From an uncultured Clostridia bacterium (GTDB lineage Bacteria > Bacillota > Clostridia > Christensenellales > Aristaeellaceae), in the NCBI GenBank assembly GCA_934636425.1, contig CAKUAV010000001.1, positions 6,072 through 70,071 of the forward strand: 64,000 bases of DNA, in the 5' to 3' direction. Shown one piece after another: positions 1,979 to 56,593 of the stretch. The position numbers and the translations under genes are program-made. Position 1 is the stretch's first letter, and every line of letters starts with the position of its first letter. The notes beneath the pieces were generated by a model, which ran no database searches, was not told the origin of the DNA, and saw only the letters and a program-made list of their open reading frames with translations.

Positions 1979-2017
1979 AAGGGCGGGCGGTCGATCGGCC
2001 GTCCGCCCCTTGTTTTA
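1979..2017 (+). terminator. Rho-independent terminator after the SBP gene
   Basis: GC-rich stem AAGGGCGGGCGG / CCGTCCGCCCCTT (one wobble, one bulge) is followed by GTTTTA. Confidence 0.6.
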
Positions 2018-2055
2018 CCCCGTGATGCGTTTATATTGATTTCAGGAGGCCAATC

Positions 2056-4971
2056 ATGCGAAAGATCTATGCGTCCTATCATCAACCGCAGTCCTATCCT
2101 GAGTATACCCGCCGCCTGATCCGCGCCACGACGCGCGACACGCTGGAGAACACCATTCAGTTCATGTCCCTGCGCGCGCTGCCGCAGAACGAGAAGGGCG
2201 AGCTCATGGAAATCGACGAGGCGCTCGATCTGTACACAAAGCGCTTTGATCTGGGCAAGGTGTTCTGGATGCAGTGCAGCACAATACACGCGCTCAATCT
2301 CCGCGAATTCCTGCAGGCCGTCCGGGAACGCAGCGGCTATGTGTTCGATCTGTGGGGCTTCGTGCCCGGCTCCTACAAGAAGGGGCTGCTCTGGGGCGAA
2401 TACGACGTGACAGAGGATAAGAACGATCTGTTCACCGGCATACTGGGCGACCGCTTCATAGGCTATGACAACGGCGAGCAGGACGGCCGCTACATTGGCT
2501 CCTACACGCCCACGCAGTGCCCCGCGCGGCAGGACAATGTGTTCCAGCAGCGCCGCTTCTATGAGTTCTTCGACGAGATGGGCAGCCAGCTTCACAACGC
2601 CACCACGGCGCTGTGCTCGCTCAACTATGTGCATTTCTTCGCCCGCGAGCAGAACTGCTTCATGCTGGGCGCGGAGACGGCGCAGGCGCTGCCCAACGCC
2701 AACCTCTGGTACGCCTACATCCGCGGCGCGGGCAAGCAGTACGGCCTTCTCTGGTTCGGCAACGCGTCGGTCTACAACCGCTTCAGCTGGAAGAGCTATG
2801 ACATCGAGAGCAACGGCGTGGATCAGGAAGGCTACAGCTACGGCCCGACCGTCGGCACCAGCCTGTCGCTGCTGCGGCGGCTGATATATGTCGAATATCT
2901 CTACAATTCCGATATGCTCGGCTTTGAATCCGGACTGGTCACGACGAAGGCGTGCATGGAAAAGGTGAACGCCGGCATTCCGCTCGAGCCGAACAAGACC
3001 AATTCCGACAAGAGCCTCTTTACCGGCGAGGACGCTGTGCTCGCGCCCATCGGTCGGATTCAGGCCGACTGCATCCGCTTCATTAAGGAGCGCGGCTATG
3101 CGGGCGTTATGGCCGTGCCCACGGCGGTTGTGCTCAATAGCGGCAACGGCTGGTGCATGCCCCGCCACCTCTACACGAGAAACGTCTATCGCAGCTGGGG
3201 TCAAATGCCCTACAAGGACTGCGATCATCAGCTGCACGCGCTCTTTACGCTGCTCTATCCGGGCTATGAGGACTCCGGCTTCTTCCTCAACGAGCGCGGC
3301 TTCCTCACGCCCACGCCCTACGGCGATCAGGCCGACGTGCTCATGACCGACGCGCGCGCCGAGACGCTTCGGCAGTACGACCTCCTGCTGATGGCCGGCT
3401 GGCAGAAGCTCGACCGCGAGCAGCTGGACAAGCTGGCCGCCTTCACCGACAACGGCGGCACAATCCTCGCCTTCGCGGGTCAGCTTGAGGACGCGCCGGA
3501 AGCGGCGGCGTTCTTCGGCGTGAACGCTCTGGGCAAGGCCTCCCTGCGCCGCGACGCGCTTGTCACAGACAGCGACGGCAAGACCCATCGCGAGCGCGCG
3601 CTTTCCGTCTACGCGGACGCCTCTCTGAGCGACGCGGACGTGCTCATGACCCTCGAGGACGGCACGCCCTTCGTCATCGCCCGCACCGCCGGAAAGGGCC
3701 GCGCGCTGCTGGTGCTCTCGCCCTACGGCCTGGATGAAACCGAAAACTCCGCGCCCGTGCGCAACATGGAGAACGTCAGCATCCCCCTGCGCCGCGATCT
3801 GCTGAAGAGCGTCAAGGCGCTGCTCACCGAGCTGATGGACGAGGAGCGGCTCGCATCCGTCGACAATCCCGCGCTGCAGACCATCGTCAACATACGAGAG
3901 GATCACACGCTGACCGTGACCGTGGTCAACAACGGCTTTGCGACGGAAAGCTACCGCATCGACTGCCTGTGCGGCAGGGAGATCAGCCGCCGCGAAATCG
4001 CCGTGCCCGATCTCGACCCCGCCACGCCCGGCTACTGGCCGATGTACACGCATCCCTATCCGCCGATGGGCGCGGTCGAAGAAGGCCGCCAGCTGATCGG
4101 CCCCGGCCAGATCGCCATGTGGGACATCGAATATGAGCCGGAGAACGTCGTATTCACGCACGAGGAGCCTATGCGCGATCTGAGCGGCAATGTCTATGTG
4201 TCGCTGCGCCCGCACGGCCTGCTCATCGAGGAGCTGCTCAAAATGCCCGCGCTCAATCAGTATTTCGCGGGCGTAAAGCTGGACGCGGCCTATGTGAGCG
4301 ATCTGAGCCTGCATCAGTGCGCTCAGGCCGGCGGCTGGCTGAAGCGGCGCGGCCTAGACGTGGTCGTCGATTTCTCCTCCGTGCTGGATCACTATCCGCA
4401 TCTGTCGCTCATACGCAACAGACCCGAGCGTCAGGACGCAAAATTCCTGTGGATAAACGACATCATGGCGAACGCTGCTGCGCTGGGCGCAAGGCGGATG
4501 CTGCTCAACCGACACCGCAACGCCGAAAACCATCTCACGCCCGACGAGGCCGCCGAGTATATGAGCGCTTCAATCGCCGCGCTCAGCGCCATGGCCGAAA
4601 AGCACGGCCTGAGCGTCATGATGACCAACGCCCTGCCCAACGCCGTCAGGGGACGCGTCGCCGATCTCAGCCGCGAAGGCTGTCCCGCCGCGGTCAATCT
4701 GGAGCACTGCCTGCTCGCTGGCGACGTCCCGGCCGGCGAAGAGCTGAAGAGCGCGCGCGCCCTGCTGCTCAGCGCGCCGCTGAAGGATGACTTTGGCCAG
4801 ATGATCGACGCGCATGCGCCGCTCCACGCCAGCCCGCTCGCCCCGCGCATCGCCGCTCTGCTGCGCGGCCTGCCGCTCGATCGATATGATTTCATCTGCC
4901 TGGACGGCGATTACACGCGCTTTGACGAGATGTATCTCGACCGGCTCTGGCTGAATGAATCCGCGGAATAA
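2056..4971 (+). CDS. large uncharacterised glycan-related protein (971 aa): unknown N-terminal catalytic-like region, GATase1/GH42M-like middle, xylose-isomerase-like TIM-barrel-like C-terminus
   Basis: RBS CAGGAGG is present. The composition looks protein-like. The middle segment (YDLLLMAGWQKLDREQLDKLAAFTDNGGTILAFAG) resembles beta-galactosidase trimerisation or ThuA-like domains. The C-terminus (LDVVVDFSS...MLLNRHRNAENHLTPDEAAEYM...HGLSVMMTNALP) resembles sugar-phosphate isomerase/epimerase TIM barrels. Function is not established. Confidence 0.85.
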   Translation: MRKIYASYHQPQSYPEYTRRLIRATTRDTLENTIQFMSLRALPQNEKGELMEIDEALDLYTKRFDLGKVFWMQCSTIHALNLREFLQAVRERSGYVFDLWGFVPGSYKKGLLWGEYDVTEDKNDLFTGILGDRFIGYDNGEQDGRYIGSYTPTQCPARQDNVFQQRRFYEFFDEMGSQLHNATTALCSLNYVHFFAREQNCFMLGAETAQALPNANLWYAYIRGAGKQYGLLWFGNASVYNRFSWKSYDIESNGVDQEGYSYGPTVGTSLSLLRRLIYVEYLYNSDMLGFESGLVTTKACMEKVNAGIPLEPNKTNSDKSLFTGEDAVLAPIGRIQADCIRFIKERGYAGVMAVPTAVVLNSGNGWCMPRHLYTRNVYRSWGQMPYKDCDHQLHALFTLLYPGYEDSGFFLNERGFLTPTPYGDQADVLMTDARAETLRQYDLLLMAGWQKLDREQLDKLAAFTDNGGTILAFAGQLEDAPEAAAFFGVNALGKASLRRDALVTDSDGKTHRERALSVYADASLSDADVLMTLEDGTPFVIARTAGKGRALLVLSPYGLDETENSAPVRNMENVSIPLRRDLLKSVKALLTELMDEERLASVDNPALQTIVNIREDHTLTVTVVNNGFATESYRIDCLCGREISRREIAVPDLDPATPGYWPMYTHPYPPMGAVEEGRQLIGPGQIAMWDIEYEPENVVFTHEEPMRDLSGNVYVSLRPHGLLIEELLKMPALNQYFAGVKLDAAYVSDLSLHQCAQAGGWLKRRGLDVVVDFSSVLDHYPHLSLIRNRPERQDAKFLWINDIMANAAALGARRMLLNRHRNAENHLTPDEAAEYMSASIAALSAMAEKHGLSVMMTNALPNAVRGRVADLSREGCPAAVNLEHCLLAGDVPAGEELKSARALLLSAPLKDDFGQMIDAHAPLHASPLAPRIAALLRGLPLDRYDFICLDGDYTRFDEMYLDRLWLNESAE

Positions 4972-47418: not shown

Positions 47419-48498
47419 ATGAGAGACTGCACACAGTATATCCATGCCCGCCGCCCGCTCTATCACACCGCCGAGGCCATCCGCCGCGGCCACATCACAA
47501 TCGGCTTCATCGGCGGCTCTATCACCGAGCCGGTCGCCGACGGCCGCCGCTGGAGCGGCAAGATCATAGACTGGTTCGTCGCCGAATTCCCCGGCCTGAT
47601 CGTCGATGAGGAAAACGCCGCCAAGGGCGCGACCGGCTCGCTCAACGCCATACTGCGCGTCGAGGACGACATACTCGCCTATGGCTGCGATCTGGTCTTT
47701 GTCGAGACGGCGGTCAACGACGGCGAAAGGGCGTGGGGCGCGTGCCGCGAGGGCATACTGCGCAAGCTGATGAAGGACGACGTGTGCGACGTCGTATTGA
47801 CCTACACCTACTCTCAGGCCATGTACGAGACGATGCTCGCCGGCAATCTGCCCCAGACCATACTCGACTGGGAGGAGCTGGCCGAGCACTATCAGCTCAG
47901 CAGCGTCCACATGGCGCGCTACACATTCGATCTGGTGATGGACGGCTTTCTGCGCTGGGACGAATGGCTGCCCGACACGCTGCACCCCGATCACGCCGGC
48001 AGCCGTCTGTACGCCGAGCCGGTCTGCCGCCTTATTCGCCGCGAGATCGATACCGCGCGGCCCGTCAGCATACCGCTCCCCGCGCCGCTGCACGCCGACA
48101 ACTGGGAGAACGTCCACCTCCTGTCGTTTGAGCAGGTGGAGCGCATCGGCGCGTGGCGGCAGACCCACGAGCGCCGCCTGCCCTCGGTGCATCATATGCT
48201 CTGCACATCCTCGATGACCGCCAGCCTGCGCTTTGAGTTCGAGGGCACAGGGCTGCTTCTTCACCTGCTCAGCGGCGGCCTGTTTTCAGCCTACAAGATC
48301 CGCATCGACGACGGCGAATGGATCGTCAAGAACGATCCTCTGCCCGAGTGGGGCATGAATGCCACCGACTGGCTGCGCGAGGATATGCCCGTCTGCGGCC
48401 TGCCCGCCGGCCGCCACACAGCGGTCATTGCGCCGCTGTTCGCCGTGGGCGGCCGCGCGACCCGCTTCCAGCTGGGCATGATCGGCGTGATCTGCTAA
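47419..48498 (+). CDS. SGNH/GDSL hydrolase family protein with a C-terminal beta-sandwich-like domain
   Basis: RBS AAAGGAG is present. SGNH blocks are FIGGSITEP, KGATGS, ETAVNDG and DTLHPDHAG (DxxH). Confidence 0.85.
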   Translation: MRDCTQYIHARRPLYHTAEAIRRGHITIGFIGGSITEPVADGRRWSGKIIDWFVAEFPGLIVDEENAAKGATGSLNAILRVEDDILAYGCDLVFVETAVNDGERAWGACREGILRKLMKDDVCDVVLTYTYSQAMYETMLAGNLPQTILDWEELAEHYQLSSVHMARYTFDLVMDGFLRWDEWLPDTLHPDHAGSRLYAEPVCRLIRREIDTARPVSIPLPAPLHADNWENVHLLSFEQVERIGAWRQTHERRLPSVHHMLCTSSMTASLRFEFEGTGLLLHLLSGGLFSAYKIRIDDGEWIVKNDPLPEWGMNATDWLREDMPVCGLPAGRHTAVIAPLFAVGGRATRFQLGMIGVIC

Positions 48499-48510
48499 AA
48501 TATACAGTTC

Positions 48511-48547
48511 AGCGCCCCGCAGAGGTGATTTTCCTCCGCGGGGCGCT
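48511..48547 (+). terminator. hairpin terminator after the SGNH gene (weak U-tract)
   Basis: 15-bp stem AGCGCCCCGCAGAGG / CCTCCGCGGGGCGCT (one mismatch) with a 7-nt loop, followed by CTCTCTCTAT. Confidence 0.55.
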
Positions 48548-48608
48548 CTCTCTATACGCGCCGCCTGCAAGGACGTTCGGCGCTTTGTCCGCGTCCCGCC
48601 GCGCAGTC

Positions 48609-48644
48609 AAAAAGCATGACCCTCCCCATGCGGGGGAGTCATGC
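48609..48644 (-). terminator. Rho-independent (bidirectional) terminator after the GH99-like gene
   Basis: Stem GCATGAC(C)CTCCCC / GGGGAGTCATGC is flanked by AAAAA on one side and TTTTCC on the other. Confidence 0.8.
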
Positions 48645-48665
48645 TTTTCCTATAGACCGCGCGCG

Positions 48666-49688
48666 TTACTGCGCCGTTCCCTTGAGAATCTCAACCGCCC
48701 TTTTGTAATGCTCGAGCCGCCTGCAGTCCGGCTTTGCGTCCGCGCCGAGCGTCGGGCAGACATAGCCGCCCTCTTCAAATTCATTCCAGGCAAACGAAAG
48801 CACATGGCCGCTCTTCACATATCGGCCGTTTTCCTCCATCCAGATTTTCAGAGCGCGCGCCGCCGCCTCAAAGCCGTTTCCGTCGTTGTCCTCAACGTAG
48901 ACTCTGTCGGGATAGGCCGCCCACGGCGTGGGGCGCTCAAAGCGCGGCGTGGGATTCCAGCCCGTCGAAAACTCGGGAATGAGCTGCAAGCCGTATTCTT
49001 TGCGCGCCTCGTTGTTCTTCATCACGTTTTCGGCAAAGGCGGCATAGCCGCTCTCGCCGGAGGAGCCGTCTGCATAGGTCGACGCCGCGTCCGCCAGAGA
49101 ATAGTCCTTCCCGTCCGGCTCGTTGCCGAAGATGCAGACGTACGCCTCCAGACCGACGCTTCTCGCCGCCGCGCGCACATTCTGAATATGGTCGACGCAA
49201 TACCCGCCGAAAATGAACACCAGCGGCCGGCCGTCAATTTTGTGATAATACGGCTTTGTCATGGCCAGCGCCAGCTTCTCCCAATCGGCCGCGCTGTAGC
49301 CGTGCATCCCCAGTATGATGGCGCACAGGTCGATTCTGTCGTTCATCGGGCTGCTCTCGAACAGATGACGCGCCCGGTTGAGCTCGTGAATATAGGGTCG
49401 TATGGCCTCGTACCGATTGCCGCCGGGCAGCTCGGGTTCAAGCGCCTCCTCCGTATACCAGCAGTAGGCAAAATAGTCTATGCCCGCGTCGATGGCAAAT
49501 TGCAGCTCGCGGTCATAGTCCCGCTGCGTGCGCTCGGGAAAGCGCCAGCCGTCGCCGTCCTTCACGGCATAATAGGGCAGGCGGCTCTTCCATTTCTCGC
49601 GGCCCAGCGAATTCATCGCCCAGTGGCCGAAAAACGTGTCCTCCGTCAATCCCGCGTCCCAGTTAATCATGCCAACCTTAACATCCAT
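48666..49688 (-). CDS. GH99-like / WbsX-like glycoside hydrolase family protein (tentative)
   Basis: RBS GGAGGACAG is present before the ATG at 49688. This is a Trp/Tyr-rich TIM-barrel-like sequence. The motif SFAWNEFEEGGY resembles the SWNEWGEG motif of the WbsX/GH99-like family. Confidence 0.75.
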   Translation of the reverse strand: MDVKVGMINWDAGLTEDTFFGHWAMNSLGREKWKSRLPYYAVKDGDGWRFPERTQRDYDRELQFAIDAGIDYFAYCWYTEEALEPELPGGNRYEAIRPYIHELNRARHLFESSPMNDRIDLCAIILGMHGYSAADWEKLALAMTKPYYHKIDGRPLVFIFGGYCVDHIQNVRAAARSVGLEAYVCIFGNEPDGKDYSLADAASTYADGSSGESGYAAFAENVMKNNEARKEYGLQLIPEFSTGWNPTPRFERPTPWAAYPDRVYVEDNDGNGFEAAARALKIWMEENGRYVKSGHVLSFAWNEFEEGGYVCPTLGADAKPDCRRLEHYKRAVEILKGTAQ

Positions 49689-49965
49689 ATTCTGTCCTCC
49701 TCTGGCATACGTTTCAAAAAAATAGGGCACATGCGCAGTCAAACAAGCCCTTGTCAGCCGGATAAACCGGCGCGCTCCTGCGGCAATACGGCCCGAATCC
49801 CGCCGCCACTGCGTCCGAAAAAGGAGAGATTGCAATCTTCCAGCGGATTTTTCGCGGCGCTCGACGTCCGAGGAATCCGAGCCGCAATCCAGTGTTGAGC
49901 GCTCAGCGGCGCTGAATCGAGTTTTCGTGCGCCGCCCCTGCGCCCGGAACCGCTCTCTGAATGTC

Positions 49966-51981
49966 TCAGTGAATCAGCAGCGCGGCGCGCTCCATCATGC
50001 GCCTGAGCTGTTCCTCGATCGACGCGGCGATGTCGCGCACCATGGCCTGCACGCTCTGCGAAGGCGGGTCGATCTCGCGCATGAGCTGGCTCTCTACGCC
50101 CGCTCTGATCTCGCCGCGGCGCCTGTTCAGGCTCTTTTTGAAAAAGCGCGGCGTGATCATGCGGCGCACGCCCAGCGGCAGCTCCGCCCTGCGCAGCATC
50201 CTTTCGGCCGTCTCCGTGCCGATCACCGCGGCCAGCAGCCCCACCAGAAAGCCGACCGCCAGCCCGGGCGCGCCCGCCGCCATCAGCGCCAGTCCGCTCC
50301 CGCCCAGTATGGCCGCCATCAGCGAGGCCACAATCACGTCGATCAGCGCCTTGATCTGATCCATTCTGAGCAGCTCGCCCGCGCTCACCTCGAGCTGCGA
50401 CACGCCCACGCCCAGCGTATCGGGCAGGCGCAGCGACGTGCGCGGCAGGTCAAACTGATCGCAGATCGGATCGGTCAGCATTTCCATATCCGGGCGCAGC
50501 TTCAAGACCCAATCGCTCACAGCAGGGCGCAGCGCGTCGGCCAGACGGCCGTCCTCCGCCATGCGCTGAAGGCGCGCCGTCAGCTCCGCGCCGATGTCGT
50601 TGAACGTCTTCAGCCCGCCGCCGCGCCACAATTCGAACACCTCGGGCGCAAGCGAATCCAGCAGAAGGTCGGTCAGCGGCGCGGACACCGCCGTAAACAG
50701 CGCGCTCAGACGCGAGAGCACCATGTTCTCCATGTCGTCTGAGCGGATCAGCGCGTCCACCGCCGCCTCGAAGCCGCGCGTCTTCTGATCGATGCGCAGC
50801 GCATAGCACAGCCCGCGCGCAATCGAAAATTCCGGCTCCAGCGCGCGCAGAACCTGCGCGTCCGGAAAGAGCGCCTTCGCCCGATCCCCGATCATGGGCA
50901 TGCGCGACGCGCCGCCGGTCAGCAGTATGATCTGCGGCATTTCGCCGTCCAGCCGGTTCACGGCCTCATTCAGAGCGCGATCGTACGCGTCCGTGAAGGA
51001 GATTCCTCCCAGCGTGTCCACGCCCTGCGAGAGAATCGCCGCCATGTCCGCGTCGTTGCAGGCAATGTCGAGCGTCAGCGGCTTTCGGCCGGCGTAGATT
51101 TTGACCGCCGATTCCGCCCGAGCCGCACCGCCGCGCGCCGCCTGCGTGAAATACATCTCCTTGACCCGCCGCGCCTCAAATTCGCAGCGTGCGCGGTACT
51201 GCAGAAAACGCTCGAGCGCCTCCTCGACCTGCGCCCGCTCGGGGCTTCTGCGCACGTTTCTCTCCAGCAGCAGCCGGTCGATCAGCCCGCCGCCCAGGCT
51301 GACCGCGCCGAAATCGCACACCGTCAGGCTGCGCTCGGCCAGATCGGAAACAAACGTGAAGTCGATCGTCGACGAGCCCGCGTCGATGATCAGCGTGGGC
51401 AGCGTCAGCAGATCGTCCGACACGCGCAGTTCGCCCGACTCCCGCGCGAACATGAACGCCGCGCGCGATTCGCTGACCACATCGCAGTGAACCATGCCGG
51501 CGCGCTCGAACAGCCTTTTATACGCCGCGCGCGTCTCCTGAGGCCATCCCGAGGGGCAGCCGATGAAAAAGCAGGCCGTTTCCGGAGTTTCCAGCCGGCC
51601 GTCCTTCATGAGCTGGGAGAGTATCTCCCGCGCGAACATGACGATCAGCGCGCCCGCGCCGGCTTCGTCTGTGAGATAGCGGCTCTTGAAGCGCAGCTCC
51701 AGCCAGTCCGCGCCGCTCAGATGGCAGGCCTCCTCGCCGATGAACAGCCCGCGCTCCGGATGCGAGGCCAGCGCCGTGATGACGCTCTTTCGCCCGCGCA
51801 GCTCAATCATCTGCGGCTCGACGCGTCTGCCCGCGCGCATCCAGGCCACGGCGCTCTCGCCGTCGCCCAGATCGAAGCCGAAATAGTCGGTGATCGCCGG
51901 ATCCGTGTTTTCCGGGATGTTTCCCGGGATGTTTTCCGAAACGCCTTCGGGAATCTTTTTTTCGATGATCGGGTTTTCCAT
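49966..51981 (-). CDS. non-canonical Hsp70/actin-fold ATPase with a helical, partly hydrophobic C-terminal extension (no DnaK-type substrate-binding domain recognised)
   Basis: RBS AGGAGA is present before the ATG at 51981. Hsp70 NBD motifs are FGFDLGDGES, LIIDAGSSTIDF, LGGGLID and ILLTGGASRMP. The C-terminal ~250 aa include the Gly/Ala-rich hydrophobic stretch VIVASLMAAILGGSGLALMAAGAPGLAVGFLVGLLAAVIG. Confidence 0.85.
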   Translation of the reverse strand: MENPIIEKKIPEGVSENIPGNIPENTDPAITDYFGFDLGDGESAVAWMRAGRRVEPQMIELRGRKSVITALASHPERGLFIGEEACHLSGADWLELRFKSRYLTDEAGAGALIVMFAREILSQLMKDGRLETPETACFFIGCPSGWPQETRAAYKRLFERAGMVHCDVVSESRAAFMFARESGELRVSDDLLTLPTLIIDAGSSTIDFTFVSDLAERSLTVCDFGAVSLGGGLIDRLLLERNVRRSPERAQVEEALERFLQYRARCEFEARRVKEMYFTQAARGGAARAESAVKIYAGRKPLTLDIACNDADMAAILSQGVDTLGGISFTDAYDRALNEAVNRLDGEMPQIILLTGGASRMPMIGDRAKALFPDAQVLRALEPEFSIARGLCYALRIDQKTRGFEAAVDALIRSDDMENMVLSRLSALFTAVSAPLTDLLLDSLAPEVFELWRGGGLKTFNDIGAELTARLQRMAEDGRLADALRPAVSDWVLKLRPDMEMLTDPICDQFDLPRTSLRLPDTLGVGVSQLEVSAGELLRMDQIKALIDVIVASLMAAILGGSGLALMAAGAPGLAVGFLVGLLAAVIGTETAERMLRRAELPLGVRRMITPRFFKKSLNRRRGEIRAGVESQLMREIDPPSQSVQAMVRDIAASIEEQLRRMMERAALLIH

Positions 51982-52055
51982 ATTCGGATGTTCTCCTGTT
52001 GTCCGCTGAATAATCGCGCCTGAAAAGCGCGCGGCGGCAAATCGCCGCACTTATC

Positions 52056-52293
52056 GTTCACGCGCAAAGCGCATCGCTTCCGGCATATCTCTTCCACGCG
52101 CCCGCCGCGCCATTCACGCGCAAACGCACGCTTCCGGCGCATCGCTCCCACGCGCTCGCCGCGCCGTTCACGCGCAAAGCGCACGCTTCCGGCATATCGC
52201 TTCCACGCGCCCGCCGCGCCGTTCACGCGCAAAGCGCACGCTTCCGGCATATCTCTTCCACGCGCCCGCCGCGCCGTTCACGCGCAAAACCAT
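52056..52293. repeat. tandem repeat, 4.3 units of 54-56 bp
   Basis: The unit is GTTCACGCGCAAAGCGCACGCTTCCGGCATATC(G/T)CTTCCACGCGCCCGCCGCGCC. Units start at 52056, 52112, 52166, 52221 and 52276 (the last is partial). Units 3 and 4 differ at a single base. Confidence 0.95.
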
Positions 52294-52315
52294 CGACCCA
52301 TGCGGGCAGCGCTCC

Positions 52316-53128
52316 TCACAGCTCCTCGGTCGCCTGTCCGCGCGCCAGCACGCGCTCGCCCTGCATCACGGCGGGGCGTATTGTCAGATCGGGCTGCGTG
52401 CCGGGAAAGAGATCGAAATAATCGCGCGTTTCGGGCGAATACTCCACCAGCCGCACGCCCTCGTCGTTCAGCGCGGCGGCGATCTGCGGCGCGGCCTTGA
52501 GCGCGTATTCGCCATCCCCGGTATAGACCGCCTCCATCAGCATCTGAATCGGCTGGAGCAGCTCGCCGGTCACGCGCGGCGCGTCGGTGGGCAGCGCGGT
52601 CTGTTCGCGGTCGATCTGCTCGAGCGCGTCGCCTATGGACGACATCAGCCGGTCGACAAGCCGCATCAGCTCGTAGACATTCGGCCGCGTGGCCTGCGTC
52701 ACGACGGTCTGCGCCCTTTCGGCGGGCTTCAGCATGGCGCGCGCCGCCCCCGCCGCGCAGGAAATCAGCGCCAGCATGGCGGCGGCGGTCTGCCCGGCGA
52801 GCATCAGCCACGCCGTCAGCACGGCGCCCGTGCCCGCCGCCGTCCATGAAAGAATCGCGGCGAGCCGCTCACGCCGATCCGCCTTGCCGCCGTCCTCGAT
52901 GCGCGCGTCGGCCTCCGTCACGCTCATCATGAGCAGCGCGGCGCGTTTGGCCGCGTCGAAGAGCCGGTCGGCCTCGCGGCGCGCGGCGGCGTCGGGCAGC
53001 GCGGCGCGGGTCTCCATGCGCACCTGCTCGAGCGCGCCCGCCAGACAATCGGCGGCGGCCTTTGCGTCCGAACAGGCTGTCAGCGCCCTTTCGAGCGCGT
53101 CGCGTCGGCGTTCATAGGCTTCCAGCAT
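52316..53128 (-). CDS. hypothetical coiled-coil / two-TM protein, putative partner of the Hsp70-like ATPase
   Basis: Strong RBS GGGAGGA lies 6 nt before the ATG. The N-terminus is Ala/Arg-rich and helical. The central hydrophobic pair is LAAILSWTAAGTGAVLTAWLMLAGQTAAAMLALISCAAGAA. The C-terminal region looks globular. Confidence 0.75.
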   Translation of the reverse strand: MLEAYERRRDALERALTACSDAKAAADCLAGALEQVRMETRAALPDAAARREADRLFDAAKRAALLMMSVTEADARIEDGGKADRRERLAAILSWTAAGTGAVLTAWLMLAGQTAAAMLALISCAAGAARAMLKPAERAQTVVTQATRPNVYELMRLVDRLMSSIGDALEQIDREQTALPTDAPRVTGELLQPIQMLMEAVYTGDGEYALKAAPQIAAALNDEGVRLVEYSPETRDYFDLFPGTQPDLTIRPAVMQGERVLARGQATEEL

Positions 53129-53317
53129 CGTTTATCCTCCCAGTTCTGCGCGAAAAGGCGCGCTCCGGCCTTCCGTCAAAAATAATTCTTCACGAACACG
53201 CTTGGAATCAGCGCGCATTTTTTCTCCCGCCCGGCGCGGCTTCGCCGTGAATGACCGGCGGCGCAGAAATCCGCCGCGCATTGCCGCTTCGACCGTCAAG
53301 GAGCGCGCCGCGGCTTT

Positions 53318-53500
53318 TTGCGATTGAGACAAAAAACAGCAATGCAGCGAACTCATGCGCAAAAACAGCGGCAAGCCGGTGGACAGGGAATCAAGCTCCC
53401 CCGCCGCTGCCCCACCATAAACGCCGCCGGGTACGACTGGAAATTCGAGAGATCTTTCACCCTCTCGAGCTCTCCAATATTTTTCGACAGTCGCCGCGCC
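53318..53500 (+). repeat. copy of the dispersed intergenic element with internal indels
   Basis: It shares GAGACAAAAAAC, GCAAGCCGGTGGACAGGGAATCAAGCTCCC, the core GCCGCCGGGTACGACTGGAAATTCGAGAG (53423-53451), the hairpin TCGAGAG-N10-CTCTCGA and the end TTTTCGACAGTC. It lacks the central ~60 nt found in the 7.5-kb copy. Confidence 0.65.
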
Positions 53501-53606
53501 CATTTCGGAGCGCGTCAGAATCGATTCCAAACAGCGCCGCCCGCTCCGTCCAATGCGTCCAAAATCTGCGGCGCGCTGCGATGAACGTCCGAAAGCCGCG
53601 AAATGT

Positions 53607-54329
53607 TCAGGGCAGCTCCGGCCAGTCGATTTTGATGCGCCGATCGATGCGCCGCGCGACGAAGGGCCGGTACAGCCGCGCCGCCTCGGGCCAGTCGGGA
53701 TGTCCGTCCAGCTTGGGGATCACATTGTAGTCGGTCAGCGGCGCGCGCAGCATGATCCGCCGCGCGCCGTTCGAGATAGGCGGCGCGTCCGAGGGACAGT
53801 TCAGGCAGATCACGCCGCCGCGCTCCGCGTCAAAGCGCGCCGCCCCATCCACGGCTCTGCCGCAGATCAGGCAGCGATCCATCTGCGGCCGATAGCCCAT
53901 CAGCGGCATATAGCGCATTTCAAAGCAGGCCGTGAGCAGCTCGGCGGGCAAATCGGAATAGCTCAGATGCGCCAGCGCCTTGAGCAGCAGAAAGAATATG
54001 TCGGGCGCGGCCTGACCGGGCAGCGCCGCCGCGTCGGCCAGACTGAGATAGTACATGCCGTGCATCAGCCGGTCGTAATTCAGACGCAGATCGTAATAGC
54101 TGTCCTTGATCTCGCACTGCGTGACCGAATGGCGCTCTCCCGACGCGTTGATCGTATACTGCCCGGCGCAGAACACCTCGCTCGCCCCGACGAGCGACGA
54201 TCGCGGGCGGCGGCAGCCGCGGGCAATGGCGTCGATGCGGCCGTGTTCGGGCGAAAACAGCGTCAGCATCCGATCATAGTCGCGGTAGTCCGCGCGCCGC
54301 AGCACGATGGCGTCGGTCGTGTAGAGCAT
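53607..54329 (-). CDS. recO: DNA repair protein RecO
   Basis: The N-terminal OB-fold sequence is DAIVLRRADYRDYDRMLTLFSPEHGRI and the zinc-finger cysteines are CLICG...CLNC. The gene follows era, as in B. subtilis. Confidence 0.92.
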   Translation of the reverse strand: MLYTTDAIVLRRADYRDYDRMLTLFSPEHGRIDAIARGCRRPRSSLVGASEVFCAGQYTINASGERHSVTQCEIKDSYYDLRLNYDRLMHGMYYLSLADAAALPGQAAPDIFFLLLKALAHLSYSDLPAELLTACFEMRYMPLMGYRPQMDRCLICGRAVDGAARFDAERGGVICLNCPSDAPPISNGARRIMLRAPLTDYNVIPKLDGHPDWPEAARLYRPFVARRIDRRIKIDWPELP

Positions 54330-54335
54330 AGGCCT

Positions 54336-55226
54336 TTACTCCTCGTAGCCGGTGGCGCGCAGATCGCTCTCGCGGTTGCGCCAGTCCTCGCGCACCTTGA
54401 CCCAGAGCTTGAGCATCACGCGCGTGCCCATCATGCGCTCTATGTCCGCGCGCGCCTGAGAGCCTATGTCGTGCAGCATCCGTCCCTGCTTGCCGATGAT
54501 GATCGCCTTGTGCGAGGCGCGCTCGCAGTATATGTTGGCGTGGATCTCGGTCAGGTTGTCGGACAGCTTTGTGATGGCCAGCATTTCCACGCCGATGCCG
54601 TGCGGGATCTCCTCGCGCAGAAGGCGCAGCGCCTTTTCGCGGATGATTTCGGCGCAGATCAGCCGCTCGGGCTGGTCGGTGATCATGTCGTCCGGAAAAT
54701 ACTTCGGCCCCTCGGGCATGGCCGCGGCGAGATAGTCGCGCAGCGTATCCATGTTGTCGCCGCGCGCCGCCGATATGGTCACAATCTGGTCGAAGCCCAG
54801 CCCTTTGAGGGTCTCCAGCTGCGGCATCAGCTTTTCGGGCGTCACGATGTCTATCTTATTGACGGCCAGAAAGCGCGGGCAGTTCATTTTCAGCACGTCC
54901 TCCATAACCGCCCGGTCGCCCGCGCCGATGTGCTGCGCGTCCACAACGCACAATACCGCGTCCACGCCCTCGCGCGCGTCGCTGGCCTGCTTCATCATGA
55001 ATTCGCCCAGCTTGGTGCGCGGCTTGTGCAGGCCGGGGGTGTCCACAAACACCAGCTGCCAGTCGGGCGCTGTGGCCACGCCGAGGATCTTGTTGCGGGT
55101 GGTCTGCGGTTTGTTGGACACGATGGCGACCTTCTCGCCCACGAAATAGTTCATGATGCTCGATTTGCCCACGTTGGGGCGGCCGATGATCGCCACGAAG
55201 CCCGAATGAAACGCCTTGTTCTGCAT
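54336..55226 (-). CDS. era: GTPase Era
   Basis: G1 is GRPNVGKSS, G3 is DTPG and G4 is NKID. A C-terminal KH domain is present. Length is 296 aa. Confidence 0.96.
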   Translation of the reverse strand: MQNKAFHSGFVAIIGRPNVGKSSIMNYFVGEKVAIVSNKPQTTRNKILGVATAPDWQLVFVDTPGLHKPRTKLGEFMMKQASDAREGVDAVLCVVDAQHIGAGDRAVMEDVLKMNCPRFLAVNKIDIVTPEKLMPQLETLKGLGFDQIVTISAARGDNMDTLRDYLAAAMPEGPKYFPDDMITDQPERLICAEIIREKALRLLREEIPHGIGVEMLAITKLSDNLTEIHANIYCERASHKAIIIGKQGRMLHDIGSQARADIERMMGTRVMLKLWVKVREDWRNRESDLRATGYEE

Positions 55227-55504: not shown

Positions 55505-55700
55505 TTAACTAAAAAAGCGTCTGGCAAAGGAAACTTGAAGTCCTCAGCTTTCTGCCGCCGAACCTGCGCTTCGGGGGACATTTCCCCACAAAATTGCAAA
55601 ACGCCCTATCCCGTCGAACCGCCCACTGGCAGACGCGGCGGCGCGGTTTCAGGCAGCCCGCCTTCAATCCGGCGGTGCAGAGTCCCACCCCGCGCGCCCT
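55505..55700 (+). repeat. divergent copy of the dispersed intergenic element (weak)
   Basis: Partial colinear matches to the 7.5-kb copy: AACTAAAAAAGCGTCTGGCAAAGG, CAGCTTTCTGCCGCC and CACAAAATTGCAAAACGCCC. It lies in the 473-nt cdd-era spacer. Confidence 0.3.
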
Positions 55701-56593
55701 CAGCTCTTCAGATCCTCCGGCCCGAACGAGCGGGGCAGCAGCTCCTCGAGCGTCGCCGTCTCGAACGCGCCGCCCCTCTTCCCCACGATGACGCGCAGAT
55801 CGCCCGATGCGAACTCGCGCAGCACCTGCCGGCAGATGCCGCACGGCCATGCCGGCTTTTCGTCGCCCGCGATGGCGATGGCGGTAAAGCGGCGCGCGCC
55901 CTCGGAGACGGCCTTCGACACGGCGCACCGCTCGGCGCATATGGTCGCGCCCAGAGACGCGTTTTCGATATTGCAGCCGGTAAACACGCGGCCGTCCTCC
56001 GCCTGAAGGCACGCGCCCACATGGAAATGCGAATAGGGCGCATAGGCCGAATCGAGCATATTGCAGGCCGCCTCGAACAGCGCCTGATCGTCATAGGCCG
56101 CGTCCTCGCGGGTCAGTCCAAGCGTCCGCATGGCTTGTTCCTCCATGGCGCGCATTTTCGCCTTGTCGGAATCGGTCATGTGGTCGTAGCCGCACAGATG
56201 CAGCATGGCGTGCGCCGTGAGATAGCCCAGCTCGCGCGCCAGAGAATGGCCGAACTCCTGCGCCTGAGCGCGCGCCCGGTCGACAGAAATCACAATGTCG
56301 CCCAGAAAGCACAGTCCGCTGTCCGGGTCGTATTCGCGGCGTATGAGATCGGCGCTGTCTCTGGCCGTCTCGCCCGGGCGATAGTTCACGCTGGGGAAGG
56401 ACAGCACGTCGGTCGGCCTGTCCACGCCCCGCTCCCTGCGGTTGATTTCATGGATGGTCTCGTCGTCCACGACGCGCACATACGCCCCGACGTTCTCTAC
56501 GCCCTCCAGCCGGCACACAGCCTCGGCCGCGCGCTCCATGAGATCGGACGCAGAGGCGGGCATATCGCTGATGCAGCATTCAATGTCAAGCAT
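55700..56593 (-). CDS. ybeY: fusion protein: rRNA maturation endoribonuclease YbeY (N-terminal) plus cytidine deaminase (C-terminal)
   Basis: Residues 1-150 carry the YbeY zinc motif HAMLHLCGYDH. Residues ~165-297 carry the Cdd motifs CAERCA and PCGICRQVLREF. This is a single uninterrupted 297-aa ORF. Confidence 0.9.
   Translation of the reverse strand: MLDIECCISDMPASASDLMERAAEAVCRLEGVENVGAYVRVVDDETIHEINRRERGVDRPTDVLSFPSVNYRPGETARDSADLIRREYDPDSGLCFLGDIVISVDRARAQAQEFGHSLARELGYLTAHAMLHLCGYDHMTDSDKAKMRAMEEQAMRTLGLTREDAAYDDQALFEAACNMLDSAYAPYSHFHVGACLQAEDGRVFTGCNIENASLGATICAERCAVSKAVSEGARRFTAIAIAGDEKPAWPCGICRQVLREFASGDLRVIVGKRGGAFETATLEELLPRSFGPEDLKS

Follow-up and report, generated by a model that had tools for sequence, protein, structure and literature searches.

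The ATPase domain of Hsp70 proteins is usually seen as a motor that drives a peptide-binding clamp. Derivatives that keep the nucleotide-binding domain (NBD) and lack the substrate-binding domain (SBD) include E. coli YegD, a soluble protein of ~450 aa that consists of the NBD alone, and HSPA13/STCH, which is associated with membranes (microsomes). Many further 'DnaK derivates' of this kind, as in Myxococcus, carry extra N- or C-terminal domains and are acknowledged as uncharacterised (PMC13580251). Hsp70-domain proteins without a peptide-binding domain also occur in some GTPase-centred conflict systems, where they accompany DO-GTPase/tubulin or GAP1-N2 GTPases (PMC7159879), and an Hsp70-like ATPase, CnuD, has been recruited into the CoCoNuT defence system (PMC11090510). 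Here we describe a two-gene module from an uncultured spore-forming Clostridia lineage (GC ~62%), located on the minus strand of contig CAKUAV010000001.1 in an analysed stretch of 64,000 nucleotides, referred to as the window. In this module, a 671-aa protein joins an intact Hsp70-type ATPase domain to a helical stalk, a hydrophobic hairpin and a basic tail, and the gene directly upstream encodes a 270-aa partner protein.

The large protein resembles the SBD-less derivatives in having an NBD without a peptide-binding domain. It differs from YegD in its length and in a conserved 276-aa C-terminal domain, and none of these derivatives has been described with this stalk-hairpin domain or with an obligate small partner gene. 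Similarly, PMC7159879 was not found to describe an Hsp70-NBD core that carries a membrane hairpin. CnuD has an NBD/SBD unit, HEAT repeats, degenerate catalytic motifs and a tie to a McrBC-type GTPase, whereas the window module has intact motifs, no SBD and no McrBC neighbour. The NBD is thus known as a kind and SBD-less derivatives are acknowledged, while the fixed architecture, the obligate partner and the effector variants of related lineages appear to be undescribed: the full-text literature searched gave no account of a family that combines NBD, stalk, hairpin and tail with an obligate partner and with TIR, caspase or EAD9 variants.

An Hsp70-type ATPase domain with its client-binding half replaced

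The large gene (49966..51981, minus strand; stop codon 49966-49968) was defined from its open reading frame (ORF) and translation. The AlphaFold2 (AF2) model, built with 61 homologues, has a predicted local distance difference test score (pLDDT) of 81 and a predicted template modelling score of 0.72, and is laid out as a disordered segment (residues 1-31), an alpha/beta domain (32-395), four long helices (383-509) followed by a conserved loop, a hairpin (540-586) and five helices to the C-terminus. More than 970 homologues were found, mostly full-length proteins of ~648 aa.

Residues 32-395 (50797..51888, minus strand) form an Hsp70-type NBD with intact ATPase motifs, as judged by Foldseek, hhalign and conservation. 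All 50 top Foldseek matches in the PDB are Hsp70 NBDs (DnaK, BiP, Hsc70), with E ~1e-12 and 14-17% identity. Aligned by hhalign to full-length E. coli DnaK, residues 32-390 correspond to DnaK 3-374 with 94% probability, and nothing aligns beyond. The likeness to Hsp70/DnaK thereby covers the fold and the phosphate-1 (DLGDGES), E171, phosphate-2 (DAGSSTxD) and adenosine (TGGASRMP) motifs, with D37, E171, D200, T205 and D207 equivalent to DnaK D8, E171, D194, T199 and D201. Across 79 sequences from at least five phyla, conservation reaches at least 95% at D37, G39, G41, E42, K99, E171, D200, G202-T205, D207, G230, G232, E267, R271, K274, E275 and T355-R360. K99 is probably the counterpart of DnaK K70, in a stretch that hhalign left unaligned. 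From these conserved catalytic residues, the natural inference is that the large protein is an active ATPase. In contrast, standard family models recognise the protein poorly. It scores 12.5 bits against Pfam HSP70 (cut-off 20.6), and its NCBIfam scores lie far under the cut-offs (DnaK 10.4 vs 1002; HscA 12 vs 708; the YegD model PRK11678 17.2 vs 331, covering 42 residues only). For both window proteins, Pfam, NCBIfam, PADLOC and PHROGs returned only sub-threshold NBD matches.

The NBD is preceded by an N-terminal extension (residues 1-31; 51889..51981, minus strand) that is not conserved and probably disordered: its pLDDT is 38-41, and homologues align from about residue 25-30. Within this extension, a tandem-repeat search located a 12-bp repeat of 2.8 copies that encodes ENIPGNIPEN (51906-51938).

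The NBD is not followed by the client-binding half of an Hsp70. The chain is all-helical after residue 383, and no linker, beta-sandwich or lid was detected by AF2, Foldseek or hhalign; the end of the hhalign match to DnaK at the NBD boundary likewise indicates that no SBD is present. Instead, the large protein adds a family-specific stalk, hydrophobic hairpin and tail. The stalk (residues 396-539; 50365..50796, minus strand) comprises four long helices (AF2: 383-413, 416-453, 460-477 and 479-509, pLDDT 85-92) and then the conserved loop LTDPICDxYxLPRTSLRLP, with W452, W491, C507 and P513 conserved. It leads into a Gly/Ala-rich hydrophobic helical hairpin with a glycine-zipper pattern and predicted membrane insertion (residues 540-590; 50212..50364, minus strand). 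Here, hydropathy delimits a hydrophobic stretch of ~40 aa at about residues 549-588 (19-aa windows starting at 540-575 score >1.5), AF2 places helices at 540-560 and 571-586, and A565, G573 and G588 are at least 95% conserved. The basic helical tail (residues 591-671; 49969..50211, minus strand; helices at 589-670) ends in a conserved RAxLLIH motif and also conserves P602 and R606. Residues 587-625, directly after the hydrophobic stretch, hold 11 K/R against 4 D/E. Hydropathy, AF2 helices and charge distribution make up the membrane case for both proteins of the module; on this basis, the hairpin of the large protein is predicted to enter the membrane from the cytoplasmic side.

These data bear out a first-pass annotation of the window, which had named four Hsp70/actin motifs in the 671-aa protein (FGFDLGDGES at residues 34-43, IIDAGSSTIDF at 198-208, LGGGLID at 229-235 and LLTGGASRMP at 353-362), had seen no DnaK beta-sandwich or lid after about residue 400, and had described a hydrophobic Gly/Ala-rich stretch in a long helical region together with a basic C-terminal end. 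It had given as a refuting outcome that the protein might be an ordinary HscC/DnaK paralogue, which structure prediction, Foldseek and profile-profile alignment exclude.

The C-terminal domain is specific to this family. A profile of residues 396-671 gave only noise against PDB sequences. Searched against 1.84 billion representatives, it retrieved 701 clusters at 50% identity, nearly all of them proteins 630-680 aa long in which the match covers about residues 365-650. The ~300-aa matches that were looked at start with the Met of GGASRM, which identifies them as truncated calls. Judging from these sequences, the domain therefore occurs only fused to this NBD.

A dedicated partner gene and its distribution

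The small gene (52316..53128, minus strand; stop codon 52316-52318) encodes the 270-aa partner protein, and a GGAGG ribosome-binding site, read from the sequence, lies 8 nt before its ATG (53136..53140, minus strand). The AF2 model (pLDDT 80) consists of three helices within residues 2-69, a strand, a hairpin at 85-132, a second strand, three further helices and a small beta unit at 225-266. The N-terminal three-helix region (residues 1-69; 52922..53128, minus strand) has helices at 2-17, 22-43 and 47-69 with pLDDT ~90. It is followed by a hydrophobic helical hairpin (residues 85-132; 52733..52876, minus strand), supported by hydropathy and by AF2 helices at 85-111 and 114-132, whose sequence columns are little conserved. 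The partner is predicted to insert in the membrane through this hairpin. The conservation profile singles out a C-terminal alpha/beta domain (residues 188-268; 52325..52567, minus strand): across 75 orthologues and all clades, only residues ~190-268 are well conserved, and L197, E199, A200, D205, A209, L220, G224, F238, P242, P252, A253, R263 and G264 are present in at least 85% of the sequences.

No described fold could be assigned to the partner. With its model, Foldseek found nothing significant in the PDB (best E 0.44) or in BFVD (best E 0.37), and its sequence profile had no match in the PDB. Similarity to J-domain, BAG or effector-associated domain (EAD) proteins was not detected, by a whole-model Foldseek search for folds and by hhalign for EAD9. 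Two candidates were tried and rejected. Against E. coli GrpE, hhalign gave 1% probability and one 13-residue match around TIRPA, and GrpE was absent from Foldseek PDB matches to E 10, from Pfam and from NCBIfam; against EAD9, hhalign gave 0.1%.

The partner accompanies the large gene with great regularity. A genome scan, pattern-limited and with one genome per species, found relatives in 194 of 185,579 species, and the best 80 loci plus five further ones were examined (85). In 80 of these, the gene directly upstream on the same strand is a partner homologue; three of the misses are contigs that end upstream, which leaves 80 of 82 readable loci. A metagenome scan, seeded with a divergent family member, contributed 77 loci, 71 with the partner directly upstream. 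Combined, the partner is found in this position at 151 of the 159 loci with readable upstream DNA. All-vs-all clustering of neighbours yielded no third conserved gene, only the two genes, shadow ORFs and lineage synteny. The two genes are thus a self-contained module with an obligate, co-oriented partner. The ratio of nonsynonymous to synonymous substitution rates (dN/dS) against the closest relatives is 0.15-0.18 (0.15 for the small gene; 0.16-0.18 vs L006/L007 for the large gene), a range at which the sequences place both genes under purifying selection.

The claims made earlier for the small gene fare equally well. The strong ribosome-binding site and the two adjacent hydrophobic helices are present, the caution that the protein fails the GrpE signature is justified, the co-occurrence proposed as a check holds over genomes and metagenomes alike, and doubt over the translation of the 270-aa ORF is answered by its dN/dS and its conservation across phyla.

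Two genome loci, both from Clostridia, truly lack a partner (L058 and L065, ~2100-4850 in each). None is present within 5 kb, their large protein has no N-terminal addition, and by eye the genes upstream resemble sugar-nucleotide and glycosyltransferase genes. A different departure is seen on a conjugative Calothrix plasmid (AP018209), the one plasmid copy of the pair, which is flanked by two integrase genes. Its partner (L086:3923-4729) fits the family profile only over positions 5-233 (E 2e-13). The conserved C-terminal motif FD..P...T.RPA...RG is missing, so that this copy of the partner may be truncated or degenerate.

The loci are spread over Clostridia, Alpha- and Deltaproteobacteria, Cyanobacteria, Binatia and Fusobacterium. 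They fall into the Clostridia clade of the window, a second Clostridia clade, a Deltaproteobacteria/Binatia clade, a Hyphomonadaceae-like alphaproteobacterial clade, a large clade grouping with the Calothrix copy, and singletons that include Fusobacterium-like ones, with the two Clostridia clades only 32% identical to each other. The distribution is patchy and incongruent with taxonomy, and the module's neighbours differ between lineages. Together with the Calothrix plasmid copy, this suggests horizontal transfer. An Hsp70 motor with all catalytic residues, joined to a predicted membrane hairpin and an obligate small partner, is thereby found from Clostridia to Cyanobacteria and Alphaproteobacteria in ~700 clusters at 50% identity, and it offers a concrete entry to the SBD-less 'DnaK derivates', a large and unstudied group to which recent reviews have pointed.

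A possible conflict-type switch or housekeeping machine

The first indication of what the module might do comes from relatives that have no partner. The first-pass annotation had pointed to a link between orphan Hsp70-fold proteins and conflict or remodelling systems, and this link finds support in partner-less members that carry TIR, caspase-CHAT or EAD9 modules. In one representative of 787 aa (P0310), a TIR_2 domain (E 5e-26) is fused ahead of the same NBD and C-terminal domain, which, as read from the sequence, holds the hydrophobic hairpin; no partner lies nearby. N-terminal additions are also present in five of the six partner-less metagenome loci. Three of them (L090, L091, L092) have a helical extension of ~90 aa, and in L094 Peptidase_C14 (E 2e-16), CHAT (E 2e-9) and the same helical segment are fused to the NBD core. 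The fifth (L169) has a 470-aa N-terminal region without a family match, whose first 450 aa matched nothing in the PDB. In L091, the gene in the partner position encodes TIR_2 (E 3e-16) and EAD9 (Pfam E 5e-5, sub-threshold). Over 63 aa, the C-terminal helices of this protein and the N-terminal extension of the NBD protein next to it share 35% identity (E 3e-6). Judged by sequence similarity, this pairing appears to match the homotypic logic of effector-associated domains in NTP-dependent conflict systems (Kaur et al. 2020, PMC7159879). The partner-less branches thus share with EAD conflict systems either an EAD9-like helix pair matched by an adjoining TIR-EAD9 protein or a direct TIR or caspase-CHAT fusion. 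The window version differs in that its two genes hold no EAD, TIR or caspase domain and its partner is not EAD-like. Since these branches are separate lineages, the partner slot has been replaced by immune-type modules at least twice, once in the TIR fusion P0310 and once in the EAD9 clade.

One of the EAD9-type partner-less members is found between dnaX and recR (L092:2066-7567). These two genes normally form a conserved operon, and this member looks like an insertion into a housekeeping operon.

Because partner-less relatives carry such modules instead of the partner, we favour, tentatively, a reading in which the pair serves in conflict or stress as a membrane switch that is gated by ATP and equipped with a dedicated cofactor, probably of the cell-suicide or membrane-damage kind. 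In such a switch, both proteins would lie at the membrane on its cytoplasmic side, with a helical hairpin as the anchor of each. The conserved C-terminal domain of the partner, which we take to act as a cofactor, would dock on the ATPase and either control its ATP cycle or be controlled by it. ATP binding and hydrolysis would then be relayed to the stalk along the rigid helix at the exit of the NBD, and this would change how the glycine-zipper hairpins pack or oligomerise in the membrane. The switch might respond to infection or membrane damage and act on the cell's own membrane, either by an abortive-infection-like permeabilisation or as a membrane-damage response. A bolder version is possible yet doubtful. 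Here, the Hsp70-type ATPase would itself be the membrane-embedded executor of an undescribed bacterial immune or cell-suicide class, in which NBD movement gates or assembles the glycine-zipper hairpin, as a pore or remodeller, under control of the partner, and in which the partner slot is elsewhere swapped for TIR or caspase via EAD9 adaptors. If the conflict reading is true, the module represents a new family for defence or programmed cell death whose effectors (membrane partner, TIR, caspase) can be swapped.

Several observations weigh against a role in conflict. The TIR, caspase and EAD9 branches are rare (~5 of ~160 loci plus 1 of 150 representatives) and at most 37% identical to the partnered members, which leaves room for a housekeeping machine that was co-opted solely there. 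No phage-borne copies were found, and neither window protein has a match in PADLOC-DB 2.0. The genomic context points in the same direction. When 135 flanking proteins of 35 dereplicated loci were inventoried with Pfam and PADLOC, the neighbours reflected lineage synteny and were otherwise assorted metabolic genes, mostly of housekeeping type, and no defence-island setting was seen. Most of the PADLOC matches among them appear to be cross-hits of Era, FtsH and RecO, as judged by equal member counts and not protein by protein; to these come single RT, Cas1 and HerA cases. In the clade of the window, the module stays beside era-recO down to ~60% protein identity, and the alphaproteobacterial clade shows stable synteny too, both of which are more in keeping with a physiological gene passed on vertically than with a defence gene of fast turnover. 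Furthermore, the insertion of the hairpins, the docking of the partner and a link from ATPase to hairpin are all predicted steps.

The same context is what a housekeeping function would lead one to expect. The pair could be an ATP-driven machine for membrane remodelling, repair or membrane-protein quality control, in which the small protein serves as regulator and anchor and the TIR and caspase forms are secondary co-options; by analogy, it might function like dynamin-like or atlastin-type NTPases or like a membrane-tethered chaperone. This is the main rival of the conflict reading. We consider it rather unlikely, although the long-lasting synteny, the strong purifying selection and the nature of the neighbours all speak for it. 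The large protein also shares its layout with dynamin-like and atlastin-mitofusin NTPases, namely an NTPase head, a long helical bundle, a membrane hairpin and returning C-terminal helices, and bacterial dynamin-like proteins frequently occur in two-gene operons. Moreover, some neighbours on the same strand are membrane-related. A bacterial dynamin-like gene lies directly upstream of the module in L029 (1889-4027) and a tandem pair in L031 (1-4049; Dynamin_N E 1e-28 to 1e-30), FtsH (AAA plus Peptidase_M41) is directly upstream of the small gene at six loci (L048, L052, L057, L062, L064 and L075; ~2000-4100), and a CDP-alcohol phosphatidyltransferase is downstream of the module in L047. However, the two dynamin-adjoined loci are related Bacillota metagenome-assembled genomes and the six FtsH-adjoined loci are close relatives of the second Clostridia clade, such that each adjacency amounts to one evolutionary event. 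The head of the large protein is an actin/Hsp70-fold ATPase and not a GTPase, and its stalk lacks sequence similarity to dynamin-like helical domains: homology was rejected when the C-terminal profile was compared with the L029 dynamin-like protein (hhalign 0.8%). The dynamin resemblance is therefore one of design, not of membership. The rarity of the family in the genome scan, pattern-limited as that scan is, and its patchiness across phyla are unexpected of a core function, and the independent replacement of the partner by TIR, caspase-CHAT and EAD9 is a hallmark of conflict systems. Should the housekeeping reading hold, the module would be a counterpart of dynamin-type membrane machines that is built on Hsp70 and driven by ATP. 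Either reading is directly testable with a cassette of the two genes, ~3 kb long.

A link to the canonical chaperone machinery is harder to sustain. A role in protein folding is unlikely, because the large protein has no SBD, the position of DnaK R167, a J-domain contact, is variable in the family, the partner is not GrpE, and no CIRCE heat-shock operator was found in 74 upstream regions or in the whole window. The large protein might instead regulate canonical DnaK at the membrane, its NBD pairing with that of DnaK in the manner of Hsp110/Grp170, as an exchange factor or as a recruiter of DnaK to the membrane. Hsp110/Grp170 and the SBD-less YegD and HSPA13 provide precedents (PMC13580251), and the long helices after the NBD would suit such a role. 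Nevertheless, this is improbable: the module has its own dedicated partner, none of ~160 loci shows linkage to dnaK, dnaJ or grpE, CIRCE is missing, and the effector fusions are left unexplained. Hsp110-type exchange factors are not known to need hydrolysis, whereas the expected hydrolysis motifs, including K99 and E171 as assigned by the DnaK alignment, are strictly conserved here.

Very improbable, in turn, is a membrane-tethered actin-like filament former of the FtsA/MreB/ParM type with the small protein as its membrane receptor. Some family members do have weak Pfam or PHROG matches to MreB_Mbl, ParM and a partition protein, and the pairs MreB-RodZ and PilM-PilN offer an analogy. Yet these matches all lie under the gathering scores, none of the 50 top structural matches is actin, MreB or ParM, and the Hsp70-type subdomain IIB helix is present, with E267, R271, K274 and E275 conserved. 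Finally, some databases name relatives 'Hsp70 family protein' or 'molecular chaperone DnaK', but an ordinary DnaK/HscC paralogue whose SBD has diverged beyond recognition is almost certainly the wrong description for a protein that is confidently all-helical with a hydrophobic hairpin after residue 395, whose alignment to full-length DnaK stops at the end of the NBD, that falls short of the Pfam HSP70 cut-off, and whose C-terminal profile matches no PDB sequence.

Gene layout, spacers and flanking genes

The ORF of the large gene extends upstream to a GTG at 52050, and an AGGAG precedes the ATG at 51981. The spacer between the two genes is filled by a 55-bp tandem repeat of 4.3 copies (52055..52288; Tandem Repeats Finder score 403, 91% matches), which has no second site anywhere in the window. 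Its copy number differs among strains, with the spacer one 55-bp unit shorter in the same-species contig L170 than in L171 and the window. No evidence was obtained that the repeat is a structured RNA (no significant fold, z = -1.0; no inverted repeats), and an Rfam scan of 48000-54500 gave no credible match. In the relative L006, a different 53-bp repeat occupies the same spacer. Four close relatives have unrelated small genes between the small and the large gene (L010:3502-4983, L012:3700-4983, L013:4190-4968 and L033:1985-3559), which by eye resemble genes for a methyltransferase, a GNAT acetyltransferase, an ankyrin-repeat protein and a kinase-like protein. The spacer looks like a hot spot for insertions, and translational coupling of the two genes is apparently not required in this clade.

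Expansion extends to the borders of the module. The intergenic regions 53158-53604, 51923-52308 and 49702-49956 of the window each exceed their counterparts in the 90%-identical L006 and L007 by 200-300 bp and do not align to them; no repeats, mobile ones included, are shared among the three.

The module itself stands at the end of a yqfD-phoH-(7TM-HD)-ybeY/cdd-era-recO gene string and occupies the same place in same-species contigs. It is followed by a conserved 340-aa gene without a Pfam match and then by a GDSL lipase gene. The former (48666-49835, minus strand) is a real gene, with 96% aa identity in L007 vs 79% for an overlapping plus-strand ORF, and it probably starts at an internal Met, as in L170, where it is 340 aa long. 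Within the upstream string, a single ORF of 297 aa (55700-56593, minus strand) joins a YbeY endoribonuclease (residues 14-157) to a cytidine deaminase (residues 168-263), and this fusion is also called in the same-species contigs L170 and L171.

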